Positions 4,247-52,200 of a DNA stretch of 64,000 nucleotides are shown here, in pieces. The translations under genes and the position numbers were made by a program. Under the pieces are notes generated by a model. That model was not told the origin of the DNA. It worked only from the letters and a program-made list of their open reading frames with translations, and searched no databases. The stretch comes from Candidatus Eiseniibacteriota bacterium. GTDB taxonomy: Bacteria; Eisenbacteria; RBG-16-71-46; CAZAMP01. How positions within the stretch are numbered: position 1 is the first letter of the stretch; each line of letters opens with the position of its first letter. Location of the stretch: assembly GCA_965224245.1 (NCBI GenBank), contig OZ245046.1, positions 4,832,001 through 4,896,000 of the forward strand, read 5' to 3'.

Positions 4247-5650
4247 GTGACACGTGGTGAGACGCTCGAGATCTGCCTGGCCCAGCGGGCCAACATGCAG
4301 GCCATCTTCCACTCGGTCGCCGACGGCCTGATCACGCTGGACGCCGACGGGCGTGTCCTGAACCTCAACCGCGCGTTCGAGGCGCTCGTCGGCATCTCCG
4401 AGGACGAGGCGGCGGGTGCTCCCGTGAACGAGATCGTGCGCGGCTCGCTGTGGTCGGTGGAGCCGATGGTTCGCGAGGTCCTCGCCAGCGGCGAGACGAT
4501 CCGCGAGCGCGAGAACGTGCTCGCGGTCAACGAGGGTCGCGAGGCCCGCGTCGTCATCACGTGCAGTCGCCTGCTGGACGCCGAGGGCCTGCCCGCCGGC
4601 GCCGTGCTGACCCTTCGCGACATCACCGCGCTGCGCGCGCTGGAGTCGAGGCTCGAGGCACGCACGTCCGTCGAGCGCCTGGTCGGATCGAGTCACGCCA
4701 TGCAGGAGATCTACGCGCTCATCGATCAGGTGGCGCCGACCGACTCCACGGTGCTCGTCCAGGGCGAGAGCGGAACCGGCAAGGAGCTCGTGGCCGACGC
4801 GATTCACCAGCGCAGCCGGCGCGCGAGAGGTCCGTTCGTGAAGGTCAACTGCTCGGCGCTCTCGGAGGGGCTTCTGGAGAGTGAGCTGTTCGGCCACGTG
4901 AAGGGTGCGTTCACGGGCGCCTTGAACGAGCGCACGGGACGGTTCGAGCTCGCCGACGGCGGCACGATCCTCCTCGACGAGATCGGGGATCTCTCCGAGA
5001 CCATCCAGGTGAAGCTGCTCCGCGTGCTCCAGGAGCGTGAGATCGAGCGGGTCGGTGACACGCGTGTGCGCCGGATCGACGTGCGCGTGATCACGGCGAC
5101 GCACCAACCGCTCCGCCAGCGCGTGGCCGAGGGACGGTTCCGCGAGGACCTCTTCTATCGCCTGAACGTGATCCCCATCGAGATGCCACCGCTTCGGGCT
5201 CATCTGGAGGACGTGCCGCTGCTCGCACGGCTGTTCCTGACGGAGATGGTCGATGCCGTCGGCAAGCGCATGGAGCAGATCTCGCCCGATGCGATGCGCG
5301 TCCTCATGGATCATCGCTGGCCGGGCAACGTGCGGGAGCTCCGGAACGCGATCGAGCACGCGGTCGTGAAGGCGCGAGGCGATCAGATCCTGGCCGAGGA
5401 CCTCCCGCGCGAGATCGTGGCCGGACCCTCGCCGGCGATGGTGTCCCAGTGGTCGGCGACGGCGACCCCGCAGCACCGCGACGCGTTCATGAAGGTGGCC
5501 AGACCCGACGACGAGGCGGAGCGAGGTCGCATCCTCGCCATCCTCAACGAGACCGGATGGAACCGTGGGGCCGCCGCCGAGCGGCTGGGGATGAACCGGA
5601 CGACGCTGTGGCGGAAGATGCGGCGGCTGGGCATCACCGGGGGGGGATGA
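4247..5650 (+). CDS. Sigma-54-dependent transcriptional activator (PAS + AAA+ + Fis-type HTH)
   Basis: PAS (SVADGLITLDADGRVLNLN), Walker A GESGTGKE, ESELFGHVKGAFTGA, LLDEIGD, WPGNVREL, C-terminal AAERLGMNRTTLWRKM; GTG 4247 follows GGGGAG (ORF open from 4184). Confidence 0.95.
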   Translation: MTRGETLEICLAQRANMQAIFHSVADGLITLDADGRVLNLNRAFEALVGISEDEAAGAPVNEIVRGSLWSVEPMVREVLASGETIRERENVLAVNEGREARVVITCSRLLDAEGLPAGAVLTLRDITALRALESRLEARTSVERLVGSSHAMQEIYALIDQVAPTDSTVLVQGESGTGKELVADAIHQRSRRARGPFVKVNCSALSEGLLESELFGHVKGAFTGALNERTGRFELADGGTILLDEIGDLSETIQVKLLRVLQEREIERVGDTRVRRIDVRVITATHQPLRQRVAEGRFREDLFYRLNVIPIEMPPLRAHLEDVPLLARLFLTEMVDAVGKRMEQISPDAMRVLMDHRWPGNVRELRNAIEHAVVKARGDQILAEDLPREIVAGPSPAMVSQWSATATPQHRDAFMKVARPDDEAERGRILAILNETGWNRGAAAERLGMNRTTLWRKMRRLGITGGG

Positions 5651-38174: not shown

Positions 38175-38804
38175 TCATCCCCGGGGATCGAGCACGAAGC
38201 ACGAGTGGTACGGGAGATCCGGGTTGCGGTACGCCCGGACGATGCGAGCCCCCGTGGAGCGGATCGCGCGCGTCACGTCCCGGTAACGCGTCCCCCGGTA
38301 GCCGATCTCCCAGTGGTGCTCCCCGTCGTACCGATACGGACCCAGCGTGTATCGCTCCGGAGACAGCGCGAACGTGCGCCAGCCGATCCTGGGCAGCCGA
38401 ACGCGCGCGGCGAGATACATGCGCACGTCCGGTACCGACACGAGCACCGCTCGCCGTGCGACGCGCGAGAGCTCGCCGACGCCGGATGCGAACTCGCCGA
38501 ACGGAAGGTGCTCCAGGACCTGGCAACACATGACCACGTCGAACGCCCCGTCCCCGAACGGGAGCGCGAGCACCGAGGCCGCGACGTCCGGTCCGAGTGC
38601 CGGGTCCACGTCAAGCGAGACCAGCGAGTGGCGCGTGAACGTGGGCACGACCGCGGACATGAACCCGTCGGCGACTCCGATCTCCAGGACGTCCGCCGCC
38701 TCCAGCTCGTACAGCTCCCGGAGCTGATTCGCGTACCCGTGAATGCGGAGGTGACTCCAGTACGCCGTCTTCTCGTAGTGTGCCTTCTCGGCCTGCTTGG
38801 CCAC
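38175..38804 (-). CDS. Class I SAM-dependent methyltransferase
   Basis: VLEIGVADG, LPFGDGAFDVVMCCQVLEHL. Confidence 0.85.
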   Translation of the reverse strand: MAKQAEKAHYEKTAYWSHLRIHGYANQLRELYELEAADVLEIGVADGFMSAVVPTFTRHSLVSLDVDPALGPDVAASVLALPFGDGAFDVVMCCQVLEHLPFGEFASGVGELSRVARRAVLVSVPDVRMYLAARVRLPRIGWRTFALSPERYTLGPYRYDGEHHWEIGYRGTRYRDVTRAIRSTGARIVRAYRNPDLPYHSCFVLDPRG

Positions 38805-38921
38805 CCATCACGTCCTTTGCCAGCGATCCGATCGGAGTCCGGACGGAAACCACGGCGGGCATGGTAACGTAGCACCTCGGAGGCGTGCGACGACCGAGCG
38901 CGCCCAGGCGAGGAGGCGCAC

Positions 38922-39317
38922 ATGACCGGTGAGATCATCGTCACCCGCGAGCGACGTCAGGGGCTGCTGTTCCGGCTCCTGGCCAACGCGGCCGCCGTTT
39001 ACGTGGCCGGCGCGGTGCTGTCCGGCGTGCATGTCAGCGGCGTCGTGGGCGCCCTGATCGCCGCCCTCATTCTCACCATCGTCAACGCGATCGTCCGACC
39101 CGTGCTGGTGTTCATGACGCTGCCGCTCACGCTGATGACGCTGGGGCTGTTCCTGCTCGTCGTCAACGCGATGAGCCTGGGGCTGGCCGCCTGGCTGGCC
39201 GGCGGCGCGTTCGACATCTCGGGGTTTGGATCCGCCGTCGCCGCCTGGATTCTCATCTGGGCCGTGAACTGGGTCATCAGCTTGATCTTCCGGCGTGAAC
39301 GGGTCGAGGTCCGCTGA
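38922..39317 (+). CDS. 4-TM 'phage holin family' (YvlD/DUF360-like) membrane protein
   Basis: NAIVRPVL..TLPLTLMTLGLFLLVVNA signature; GAGGAGG RBS. Confidence 0.88.
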   Translation: MTGEIIVTRERRQGLLFRLLANAAAVYVAGAVLSGVHVSGVVGALIAALILTIVNAIVRPVLVFMTLPLTLMTLGLFLLVVNAMSLGLAAWLAGGAFDISGFGSAVAAWILIWAVNWVISLIFRRERVEVR

Positions 39318-39589
39318 CCGGACCGGACCGGACCCGCCCGCCCGTCGCCCCCGTCGGCCCCGTCGGCCCCGGGGCCCAGGACCTCCGAGGCCTCCGTCCC
39401 CGACAACCCCGCGGTGGACCACCGCGAGAAGGCGGGACCGAACCGACCAAACCGACGACCCTCGACCGTCGATGCTCGACCGTCGTGCCGAATCCCCGGC
39501 ACGACGCCCGGGGGCGCCCCAGGCCGGCCTTCCACCCAACCATCTGAAAACAAACGACCTGGGGGCGCCGATCCGAACGCCGCCGCTAC

Positions 39590-39606
39590 CTGGCACGTCG
39601 CCTGCA
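39590..39606 (+). promoter_or_regulatory. Sigma-54 (-24/-12) promoter
   Basis: CTGGCACGTCGCCTGCA = GG-N10-GC; A-rich IHF-like tract at 39537-39561 upstream. Confidence 0.75.
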
Positions 39607-39615
39607 ATGAAGAAC

Positions 39616-39953
39616 GGGCGAGGCTCGAGACGGTCAAGCGGGCAGACATCCTCCGGAAAGTCCGGCGCGATGTCTTTCGTCGACGGCCTCAGCGAAAGCA
39701 ACCGCGCTTCCGCGAGCCGCCCCGCCCGAGGGGGTGACTCCCGACCGCGGAGACACGATGGCTCAATGCGGACCGGCCATCGCGCTCCGGGGAGGGGGTC
39801 GCCGCTCTCGACGATGGGCCGCGCAGCGGGCGCGCGACATGTTAGGGGATGCCTGAGAGGCTCGGTTCAAAGCGGGCGAGACTGAGCTGATCGGGCATAC
39901 CCATTTCGAGGGGCGCTCGGCTCCCTTTCGGGACCGGGCGCCCCTCGTCGTTG
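39616..39953 (+). ncRNA. Candidate structured non-coding RNA or long structured leader, sigma-54 driven
   Basis: Four consecutive hairpin domains with G-U wobbles that pair only on the + strand; starts at the predicted sigma-54 TSS; no credible ORF. Confidence 0.55.
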
Positions 39954-39954
39954 T
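39907..39954 (+). terminator. Terminator-like hairpin closing the candidate RNA
   Basis: CGAGGGGCGCTCGG...CCGGGCGCCCCTCG stem followed by TCGTTGT (weak U-tract). Confidence 0.45.
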
Positions 39955-40006
39955 ACCCTCGGCGGGATGACGGTCGAAGTCCAACGTCCCACGCCCGAGG
40001 TGCCAC

Positions 40007-40984
40007 GTGAAACGCATCCACGTCCTGATCGCGGCCTGCGCCCTGGCCGTGTCGGCTCGAGCCGAACCGCCCCCACCCACCACGTTCTCCATCGTCGCCG
40101 CCGACCCGGCCGCCGGCGAGGTCGGGGTTGCGGTCGCCAGCCGGTTCTTCGCCGTGGGCACCGTCGTCCCACACGCGCGAGCCGACGTCGGCGCCGTGGC
40201 CACACAGTCCTTCGCCAACACGAGCTTCGGCCCGCGCGGGCTCGAGCTGCTGGCGGCCGGGGCCAGCCCGGAGGAGGTCCTAGCCATCCTGCTGCGAGCC
40301 GACGACGGCCGCGCCCAGCGCCAGGTCGGTGTCGTGTCCGCCGACGGGCAATCCGCCACGTTCACCGGCGACGCGTGTCTCGCGTGGGCCGGCGGCCGCA
40401 TCGGGGACGGCTACGCCGTGCAGGGCAACATCCTGGCGGGCGAGGCGGTCGTCGTCGAGATGGAGCGCGCGTTCCTGGAGAGCGCGGGCGAGCCGCTCGC
40501 CACGCGACTGTTCCGCGCGCTGGCCGCGGGCGACGCGGCCGGCGGAGATGCGCGCGGGAAGCAGTCCGCGGCGCTGGTCGTCGTTCGCGACTCGGCGGGC
40601 TACGGCGGATACACCGATCTCGCGGTGGACGTGCGCGTGGACGATCATCCCCGGCCGTTCGCCGAGCTCGAGCGTCTGCTCGGTCTCGCGCTCGTCAACG
40701 ATACGTGGAACCGGGGGTGGACCGCGTTCACCGAGAAGCGCTACGCGGAGGCGCTGGCGTGGCAGCGGAAGACGGCCGCCCTCGCCGAGTCCACGGGGTC
40801 GATGCTGCCCGAAGTGCTGTATGACCTCGCGGTCATCCAGGTCGCGAACGGGGACCTCGAGCCGGCGCGACGCTCGCTCGAGCGCGCGGTCTCGCTGAAC
40901 CCGAAGCTGGCCACGCAGGCCCGCGCCGACGCCGACCTGTCCGCGCTGGGCGACACGCTGGATCAGCTGCCCCAGGCGCCGTAG
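40007..40984 (+). CDS. DUF1028 (Ntn-hydrolase-like) exported protein with C-terminal TPR
   Basis: Signal peptide, TFSIVAADP, GVAVAS, GAVATQ, QGNIL, GGDARGKQSAAL, RVDDHPRP. Confidence 0.9.
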   Translation: MKRIHVLIAACALAVSARAEPPPPTTFSIVAADPAAGEVGVAVASRFFAVGTVVPHARADVGAVATQSFANTSFGPRGLELLAAGASPEEVLAILLRADDGRAQRQVGVVSADGQSATFTGDACLAWAGGRIGDGYAVQGNILAGEAVVVEMERAFLESAGEPLATRLFRALAAGDAAGGDARGKQSAALVVVRDSAGYGGYTDLAVDVRVDDHPRPFAELERLLGLALVNDTWNRGWTAFTEKRYAEALAWQRKTAALAESTGSMLPEVLYDLAVIQVANGDLEPARRSLERAVSLNPKLATQARADADLSALGDTLDQLPQAP

Positions 40985-51123: not shown

Positions 51124-52200
51124 ATGGCGATCGTTGCCGCCTCCCCCGAGGCCACCTACGAGCAGATGAAGGCGAAGCTCCGGGACGTCGTCCCCGACTT
51201 CGAGCTGCGCGAGAAGGCCGAGCTGGCCTTTCGCATCAATCAGCTGAAGGCCGAGCGCGACGCCGTCATCCTCGGGCACAACTACATGGAGCCCGCGCTC
51301 TTTCACTCGGTGCCCGACATCACCGGCGACTCGCTCGAGCTCTGTCGTCGCGCGAAGGCGGCCACCCAGTCGGTGATCGTCTTCTGTGGCGTCGAGTTCA
51401 TGGCCGAGACGGCGAAGATCCTGAACCCCGAGCGCACGGTGCTGATCCCGTCGCAGAAGGCGGGGTGCTCGTTGGCGTCGTCGATCACCGCCGCCGACGT
51501 GCGTGCGCTCCGCGAGCGATACCCGGGCGTGCCGGTCGTCACGTACATCAACACGTACGCCGACGTGAAGGCCGAGTGTGACATCGTGTGCACGTCGGGC
51601 AACGCGGCCGCGGTCGTCGAGTCGCTCGAGAGCGACACGATCATCTTCCTGCCCGACGAGTATCTCGCGGCCAACGTGGCCGACGAGACCGGCCGTCACA
51701 TCATCTACCCGACGAAGGATCCGGTCGCGTCCGCGAAGGTGGAGTCGTCGTCGATCCAGGTCGAGATGATCGGCTGGCACGGGCGCTGCGAGGTACACGA
51801 CAGGTTCACGGTCGAGGACATCGAGAACGTGCGCCGGCAGTTCCCCGACGTGCTGGTCCTCGCGCACCCCGAGTGCAGCCGCGAGGTCGTGGCGGCGTCG
51901 GACTTCTCGGGCTCCACGAGCGCGATGATCGCGCACGTGCGCGAGTCGGACGCGCCGCGCTATCTCCTCCTGACCGAGTGCTCCATGGGAGACAACATCA
52001 TGGCGGAGAACCCCGACAAGGAGATGCTGCGGCTCTGCAGCGTCCGGTGCCCGCACATGAACACGATCACGCTCGAGGACACGCTCGCGGCGCTTCAGCA
52101 CCTGCAGTACGAGGTGCACGTGCCTGCCGACATCCGCGTGCGCGCGCTCCGGGCCGTCGAGCGGATGCTCGAGGTCACCGGCCAGGACGTTCCGGGATAG
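51124..52200 (+). CDS. nadA: Quinolinate synthase
   Basis: ILGHNY, FCGVEFMAETAKILNP, AGCSLA, YINT, CEVH, HPEC, CPHM; AAGGAG RBS. Confidence 0.97.
   Translation: MAIVAASPEATYEQMKAKLRDVVPDFELREKAELAFRINQLKAERDAVILGHNYMEPALFHSVPDITGDSLELCRRAKAATQSVIVFCGVEFMAETAKILNPERTVLIPSQKAGCSLASSITAADVRALRERYPGVPVVTYINTYADVKAECDIVCTSGNAAAVVESLESDTIIFLPDEYLAANVADETGRHIIYPTKDPVASAKVESSSIQVEMIGWHGRCEVHDRFTVEDIENVRRQFPDVLVLAHPECSREVVAASDFSGSTSAMIAHVRESDAPRYLLLTECSMGDNIMAENPDKEMLRLCSVRCPHMNTITLEDTLAALQHLQYEVHVPADIRVRALRAVERMLEVTGQDVPG

Follow-up and report, generated by a model that had tools for sequence, protein, structure and literature searches.

What occupies the 689 nucleotides (nt) between a gene for a small membrane protein and a gene for a secreted DUF1028 protein in the genome of a Candidatus Eiseniibacteriota bacterium? 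This intergenic region lies at positions 39318-40006 of the stretch of DNA analyzed here (64,000 nt of contig OZ245046.1, assembly GCA_965224245.1; hereafter the window), its start being set by the stop codon of the upstream gene. A first-pass annotation, made from the DNA letters, had proposed that the region contains a sigma-54 promoter followed by a novel structured RNA of about 330 nt, which would act as a small RNA (sRNA), as a protein sponge, or as a long attenuating leader of the DUF1028 gene. With a confidence just short of even, we prefer to read the element as a structured 5′ leader of the DUF1028 mRNA that depends on sigma-54 and is specific to the genus. Provided that it is transcribed as predicted, the element would be one more large structured non-coding RNA or leader driven by sigma-54, here outside the Proteobacteria, from which such RNAs are known, and in a lineage that has not been cultured and whose set of sigma-54 activators is unusually large.

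The predicted sigma-54 promoter

The -24/-12 element CTGGCACGTCGCCTGCA can be read directly on the plus strand at 39590-39606. It has the form CTGGCACG-N4-CTGCA, with a pattern match at 39591-39605, and its GG (39592-39593) and GC (39604-39605) doublets are exactly ten bases apart; its single departure from the consensus is a C instead of a T preceding TGC. The positions of GG and GC predict a transcription start at about 39617, which is the first base of a helix opening with GGGCG. With a matrix trained on 40 other intergenic sites of the same genome, this site being left out, the promoter scores 21.0 bits; on both strands of the genome 15 sites reach at least this score, and all 15 are intergenic. 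The motif TGGCAC-N5-TTGC is intergenic in 12 of its 14 genome matches and TGGCAC-N5-CTGC in 8 of 15, compared with an intergenic share of 13% of the sequence, and the wrong-spacing controls of the TGGCAC motif gave one and two matches in total in the genome. A same-strand gene follows 45 of the 53 intergenic sigma-54-like motifs. The genome also encodes RpoN (rpoN; PF04552, 220 bits) and 35 enhancer-binding proteins (PF00158, E 5e-42 or better). Judged by these features, the promoter proposed in the first-pass annotation is very probably real. One of the 35 enhancer-binding-protein genes lies in the window itself (4679-5182, plus strand; G000:C1:4836679-4837182), about 35 kb upstream of the promoter. 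A second match to TGGCAC-N5-CTGC, TGGCACGGGCGCTGC, is found at 51775-51789 (plus strand); since it is absent from the intergenic sigma-54 candidates, it is probably located within a gene.

Activator-binding sites of sigma-54 promoters are expected roughly 80-150 nt upstream of the transcription start. In this range a perfect palindrome of 10+10 nt, CGTCGTGCCG-N6-CGGCACGACG, occupies 39481-39506, its center lying about 124 nt before the predicted start, and it is preceded and slightly overlapped by two copies of the 11-nt direct repeat CTCGACCGTCG (39461-39471 and 39475-39485). The whole stretch 39461-39506 is a candidate enhancer region on account of its position. The palindrome core GTGCCG-N6-CGGCAC has a single occurrence in the 6.9-Mb genome and thus provides no regulon motif that would confirm the putative activator role. 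Alternatively, 39461-39506 could form a hairpin that ends the transcript of the upstream gene. Between the palindrome and the promoter lies the A-rich tract ccatctgaaaacaaacgacc (39540-39559), which the first pass had already noticed and likened to a site for IHF.

Fold of the predicted transcript

Downstream of the promoter the region does not look like a gene for a protein. Its six reading frames have coding scores of -0.13 to -0.25 per codon, as against +0.24 to +0.30 in the neighboring genes. A pseudogene or a small open reading frame (ORF) was considered as an explanation of the intergenic region and rejected: the four ORFs that overlap it have no Pfam match, and all six frames score as non-coding.

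The 338-nt stretch 39616-39953 folds with a predicted free energy of -200.5 kcal/mol (z -6.2), and none of 100 shuffled sequences was as good. For a background from the same genome, a 338-nt window from the center of each of 750 long intergenic regions was folded on both strands. Nine of these windows reach -200.5 kcal/mol, placing the element in the top ~1%; after correction for GC content its z is -3.3, and 2 of the 750 windows are equally extreme. The element also has the lowest z of the 53 regions that follow intergenic sigma-54-like motifs.

The hairpins listed in the first pass are all present at their positions on the plus strand. Domain 1 (39616-39727) is a branched fold that starts at the predicted transcription start and contains the pairings AGACAUC/GAUGUCU and CCGGA-AAG-UCCGG; at -53.4 kcal/mol (z -2.1) it was equaled by 6 of 200 shuffles. 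The helix that was thought to close this domain at the predicted start is recovered when Domain 1 is folded alone, and is lost in the minimum-energy fold of the full-length sequence, where the 5′ GGGCG pairs elsewhere. Domain 2 (39727-39810), a long hairpin of 84 nt at -58.1 kcal/mol, has a z of -6.1 and was equaled by none of 200 shuffles, and Domain 3 (39845-39902) is a hairpin with an apical loop of 12-14 nt (z -3.1, 1 of 200 shuffles). It is followed by a GC-rich terminal hairpin of 18 bp (39907-39947; with its tail UCGUUGUAC, 39907-39956), for which -39.2 kcal/mol and a z of -5.3 were obtained, again with 0 of 200 shuffles as good. Domain 3 and the terminal hairpin jointly reach a z of -6.7. 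The motif AGCGGGC does recur at 39637, 39825, and 39871, but this recurrence is at chance level, since a 7-mer present in triplicate turned up in 558 of 2000 dinucleotide shuffles as well. It was this repeat from which the idea of a protein sponge had been drawn.

The last two hairpins bear on the expression of the gene that follows. The tail UCGUUGUAC contains four U in nine positions and thus falls short of the terminator rule of five T in eight on the plus strand. Within this genome, at least four U follow 27% of the long hairpins past genes versus 6% of those within genes. In these models the terminal hairpin is a candidate for a weak terminator or for a stabilizing hairpin. Only about 55 nt separate it from the DUF1028 start codon, and this interval is taken up by a further hairpin on the plus strand (39950-40006; -25.0 kcal/mol, z -2.0, 8 of 200 shuffles as good), in which CCCUCGG (39956-39962) pairs with the GAGG (39997-40000) of the ribosome-binding site. 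In the predicted fold GAGG has an unpaired probability of 0.01 or less. The ribosome-binding site is thus predicted to be buried, as the first pass had suspected.

The order of these parts, from a promoter through a structured domain, a terminator-like hairpin, and a hairpin over the ribosome-binding site to a gene, is that of leaders acting by transcription attenuation, and the first pass had considered an attenuating leader. In such a riboswitch-like device, responsive to a ligand or a protein, Domains 1-3 would form an aptamer that chooses between termination and read-through. A device of this kind needs a competing antiterminator, and none was seen: when one arm of the terminal hairpin, 3′ or 5′, was kept open in constrained folding, the energy rose from -229.7 to -203.0 or -206.9 kcal/mol, a cost of 23-27 kcal/mol, and the freed arm gained no upstream partner. 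Riboswitch matches in Rfam are likewise missing. Moreover, aptamers are conserved, yet the sequence was found nowhere else, and both the promoter and the long leader are missing upstream of the DUF1028 orthologs examined, including the 118 loci scanned for the promoter motif. An attenuator is therefore highly improbable; on the modeled energies the leader consists of static, very stable hairpins in a row and is no switch.

No sigma-70-like site occurs within 38800-40300, and no other promoter of the DUF1028 gene was seen. Together with the poor U-tract behind the terminal hairpin, this makes the sigma-54 promoter as promoter of the DUF1028 gene the most economical reading. A structured leader of the DUF1028 mRNA might then work as follows. 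The sigma-54 promoter is probably activated from a site about 124 nt upstream by one of the genome's 35 enhancer-binding proteins, and transcription from about 39617 would yield a DUF1028 mRNA with a hairpin-rich 5′ leader of 390 nt. We infer that RNA polymerase would read through the 18-bp hairpin with its poor U-tract, and that this hairpin and the one burying the ribosome-binding site would set the amount of full-length, translatable mRNA. The leader may damp translation, and it may leave a stable 5′ fragment of ~335 nt. The element would have arisen, or become joined to the DUF1028 gene, after a rearrangement of the locus.

Relatives of the element and history of the locus

Several results speak against a functional leader, and they come mainly from the search for relatives. 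Rfam 15 gave no match at the gathering score in the whole window. Below the threshold, six models matched within 39300-40100 (four animal microRNAs, one snoRNA, and one of lncRNA type) with E-values of 0.47-7.2, the best of them reaching 20.7 bits against a cut-off of 100, and the window contains neither a tRNA nor a tmRNA. The element thus belongs to no described RNA family, as far as sequence and covariance models can tell, in agreement with the first impression. It is present as a single copy in its own genome, where further copies were not found, has no sequence paralogy with the other sigma-54 leaders of that genome, and has no match in the plasmid and phage collections.

The search for homologs in related genomes that the first pass had suggested was negative. 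None of 40 relatives has the element, and neither does the one genome of the same family that was compared (G001), which represents the only other genus of the family, a sister genus. The 205 other genomes of the class contain merely GC-rich pieces of 19-68 nt on both strands; this number includes the unpublished genome G083, on which no other negative result depends. Because such a GC-rich piece is found at E <= 0.1 in 172 of 206 genomes, the E-values are too optimistic at 70% GC. A single-sequence covariance model of Domain 1 gave 0 hits of 150, and a model of Domain 3 plus the terminal hairpin gave 2 of 150 (E about 1e-3), both generic GC hairpins without a sigma-54 motif. In addition, nhmmer and blastn, applied to sets of 82 and then 83 loci, detected no similarity at 160 DUF1028 loci, 80 from genomes and 80 from metagenomes, which were taken from the matches listed. 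The same search recovered a second structured RNA of this genome, RNA 'B' (see below), in the sister genus, so that the blank for the element carries weight.

The DUF1028 orthologs point the same way. At 38 genome loci no TGGCAC-type motif is found upstream of the DUF1028 gene, apart from two loose TGGCAG matches, and there is none at the 80 metagenome loci among the matches listed. The spacers upstream of the orthologs range from -26 to 397 nt with a median of about 80, as determined at the 16 of 23 loci with a usable gene call. The other 7 had been mis-called by our gene finder, a crude self-trained ORF scorer (4622 genes in this genome, 87% coding). Among the matches listed, the best metagenome locus encodes a DUF1028 protein of 73% identity; ENA holds a protein of 83% identity, whose locus lies outside those compared. 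Close relatives may still exist. By these sequence comparisons, the element appears to be genus-specific or younger and not to be under conservation at the family level.

The fold itself also provides arguments against a role as RNA. The first-pass annotation had stated that many pairs are G-U and work on the plus strand only. This holds only in part. Domain 2 prefers the plus strand by 9 kcal/mol, and Domain 3 and the terminal hairpin likewise favor it; overall, the plus strand is preferred by 18 kcal/mol and has 16 G-U among 124 pairs, compared with 11 among 123 on the minus strand. In Domain 1 the minus strand folds better (-63.2 versus -53.4 kcal/mol), and the minus strand of the entire stretch folds nearly as well as the plus strand (z -5.1), which is compatible with a DNA-level origin of the palindromes. 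Furthermore, when the 17 long intergenic windows with the strongest structure were compared with Rfam, 16 had no match and the remaining one is a tRNA. With one of 17 windows in an Rfam family, strong predicted structure cannot be relied on here to indicate a known RNA. The Rfam-less windows include C3:5570-5907, C1:4931612-4931949, C8:22806-23143, and 13 further intergenic windows, and may represent missed genes, repeats, or additional unknown RNAs. Some of them differ strongly between the strands, C1:4931612 for instance with -216 kcal/mol on the plus and -134 kcal/mol on the minus strand.

The best named relatives of the DUF1028 protein, among the matches listed, are found in metagenome-assembled genomes (MAGs) of Acidobacteriota with 70% identity or less. 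The distribution is patchy: the best protein in the sister genus (G001) has 47% identity, whereas those in two other families have 67-68%. None of the DUF1028 ortholog loci shares the local gene order, and in G001 the holin-like gene (49% identity) is directly followed by another ORF. The unshared gene order and the patchy DUF1028 identities make the locus look rearranged or acquired. The element, an orphan in such a setting, could be a neutral leftover of rearrangement or gene transfer. In that case the promoter would still drive the DUF1028 gene, and the 390 nt between them would contain hairpins without an RNA function, such as decayed inverted repeats that fold by accident; the fold of the minus strand and the many other structured windows lacking a known RNA would fit this explanation as well. 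Neutral sequence would not usually reach a z of -6.2 and rank in the top ~1% of long intergenic windows, however, and the element, single in its genome and without plasmid or phage match, is no copy of a repeat or mobile element. Chance also requires neither that the first helix starts at the predicted transcription start nor that the last hairpin covers the ribosome-binding site. Finally, three of the 53 stretches that follow sigma-54 motifs stand apart by their structure, with a z near -3, and these three include a conserved RNA. On balance we regard a neutral origin as doubtful, and a structured leader of the DUF1028 mRNA is still preferred.

The upstream gene (38922-39317, plus strand) encodes a small membrane protein of the PF04020 (Phage_holin_4_2) family (Pfam E 1.3e-27), with a coding score of 0.30 per codon and a GC content at third codon positions of 0.91. 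The downstream gene (40007-40984, plus strand; coding score 0.28 per codon) starts with GTG, 6 nt past GAGG, and encodes a secreted DUF1028 protein of the Ntn-hydrolase superfamily with C-terminal TPR repeats (PF06267, E 1.4e-76, plus TPR families). Signal-peptide-like N-termini, judged by eye, are also present in its relatives. Upstream of the holin-like gene, at 38175-38804 on the minus strand, an ORF of 209 amino acids scores well as coding but lacks a Pfam match; inspection of its sequence makes it a candidate SAM-dependent methyltransferase with a motif like VLEIGVADG. The holin-like gene is followed immediately past its stop codon by short C-rich tandem repeats with a GC skew of about -0.18, which extend over 39316-39371 and consist of GACCGGACCG-like units (39316-39340) and of three copies of CCCGTCG(G/C)CCCCG at 9-nt spacing (39341-39371).

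The assembly comprises 6.94 Mb in 27 contigs with 68.6% GC. The locus was found in four public runs, all of them DNA contigs of one sample that is possibly the source of the assembly, and they contain no variants. In run X1, one contig of low depth joins 39582 to 40030 and skips 447 nt with the promoter, the RNA, and the first DUF1028 codons. The shorter side of this junction has only 20 letters, and the contig probably reflects another organism or a chance match.

Sigma-54-dependent RNAs of this and other lineages

Besides the element, two more regions behind sigma-54 motifs stand out by their structure (z near -3). One of them, RNA 'B', lends itself to a comparison with the element. RNA 'B' (G000:C1:5841134-5841387, in the region 5841099-5841399 and outside the window) is about 250 nt long. 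Its promoter TTTGGCACACTGCGTGCAAT (TGGCAC-N5-GTGCAAT) is the top-scoring sigma-54 site of the genome, and the predicted RNA starts with GGGC, folds with a z of -7.2, carries U6 at its end, and matches no Rfam family. Its homolog in the sister genus (G001) has 75% identity over 247 nt and keeps both the -24/-12 element and the U-tract, while 7 of 70 predicted pairs are changed on both sides. The two genomes have different genes downstream of RNA 'B', which would be expected if it is an independent sRNA gene. From these comparisons RNA 'B' looks like a real, undescribed, family-conserved sigma-54-dependent sRNA. Its conservation along with promoter and terminator indicates that this lineage does make structured RNAs driven by sigma-54. 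RNA 'B' is also the more useful result and the better lead of the two, being conserved in a second genus with promoter and terminator and possibly representing a new RNA family. The other outlier, in the region C1:2591604-2592393 of the same genome (minus strand, outside the window), contains the sigma-54-like motif GGTGGCACGTCGGGTGCTT and, behind it, about 775 nt in which no gene was called. Its first 338 nt fold with -205.0 kcal/mol in the sense and -168.5 kcal/mol in the antisense direction (z -2.9). The region has no Rfam match at E <= 1, and the next gene (661 amino acids) is without a Pfam family.

The element and RNA 'B' share the genome, the type of promoter, the GGGC start, a strong fold, and the lack of an Rfam match. 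They have no mutual sequence similarity, and a U6 terminator, a homolog in the sister genus, and compensatory changes are found only in RNA 'B'. This comparison bears on the possibility that the element, too, is a stand-alone sigma-54-dependent sRNA. Such an RNA would extend over about 335 nt, from 39617 to about 39950, end at the 18-bp hairpin, and act in trans by base-pairing or protein binding, while the DUF1028 gene would be transcribed through leakage past the hairpin or from an unseen promoter. A strong promoter of its own, the end hairpin of -39 kcal/mol, and a content of four U in nine, which is 4-5 times commoner past genes than inside them, would suit an sRNA, and so would the precedent of RNA 'B' with its U6 terminator kept in the sister genus. 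That a blocked end hairpin yields no alternative fold is also what a constitutive terminator would show. Yet the U-tract is poor next to that of RNA 'B', and an sRNA that acts on targets in trans is, as a rule, retained across its family or more widely, whereas the element shows no conservation. An sRNA would furthermore leave the DUF1028 gene without a visible promoter, and the repeated AGCGGGC, a possible protein-binding motif, occurs at chance level. We therefore consider a stand-alone sRNA unlikely.

In a more specific form of this idea, the element would be a young, genus-specific, sigma-54-dependent regulatory RNA, either an sRNA of ~335 nt or a protein-binding RNA, recently born at a rearranged locus in a little-studied lineage that routinely makes such RNAs. 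This, too, is improbable. If true, the element together with RNA 'B' and possibly the C1:2592379 region would mean that the lineage routinely uses sigma-54 for large structured non-coding RNAs. In the paper library searched, nothing but unrelated papers turned up for DUF1028 and for sigma-54 small RNAs in Acidobacteria.

Among known structured RNAs, 6S RNA (RF00013) resembles the element in being non-coding, structured, and a few hundred nucleotides long. The first pass had not recognized the element as 6S RNA, and rightly so: its fold is no single rod with a central bubble, and the 6S RNA of this genome is encoded elsewhere (C1:1389857-1390043, 66.2 bits). Closer parallels exist among the sigma-54-dependent small RNAs of Proteobacteria, of which CrcZ is one. 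Further examples are GlmY/GlmZ, Qrr1-5, and NrsZ (PMC2377431, PMC3045617, PMC3352281, PMC4253122). The Proteobacterial sRNAs are 100-400 nt long, conserved across genera, equipped with clear terminators or processing sites, and known for their partners. The element differs from them in that it has no homolog, a weak U-tract, and a gene directly downstream, and no sequence or Rfam relationship with them was found. What GlmY/GlmZ, Qrr1-5, NrsZ, and CrcZ have in common with the predicted element is the -24/-12 promoter, a structured transcript that is non-coding, and an activator site expected about 100-150 nt upstream.

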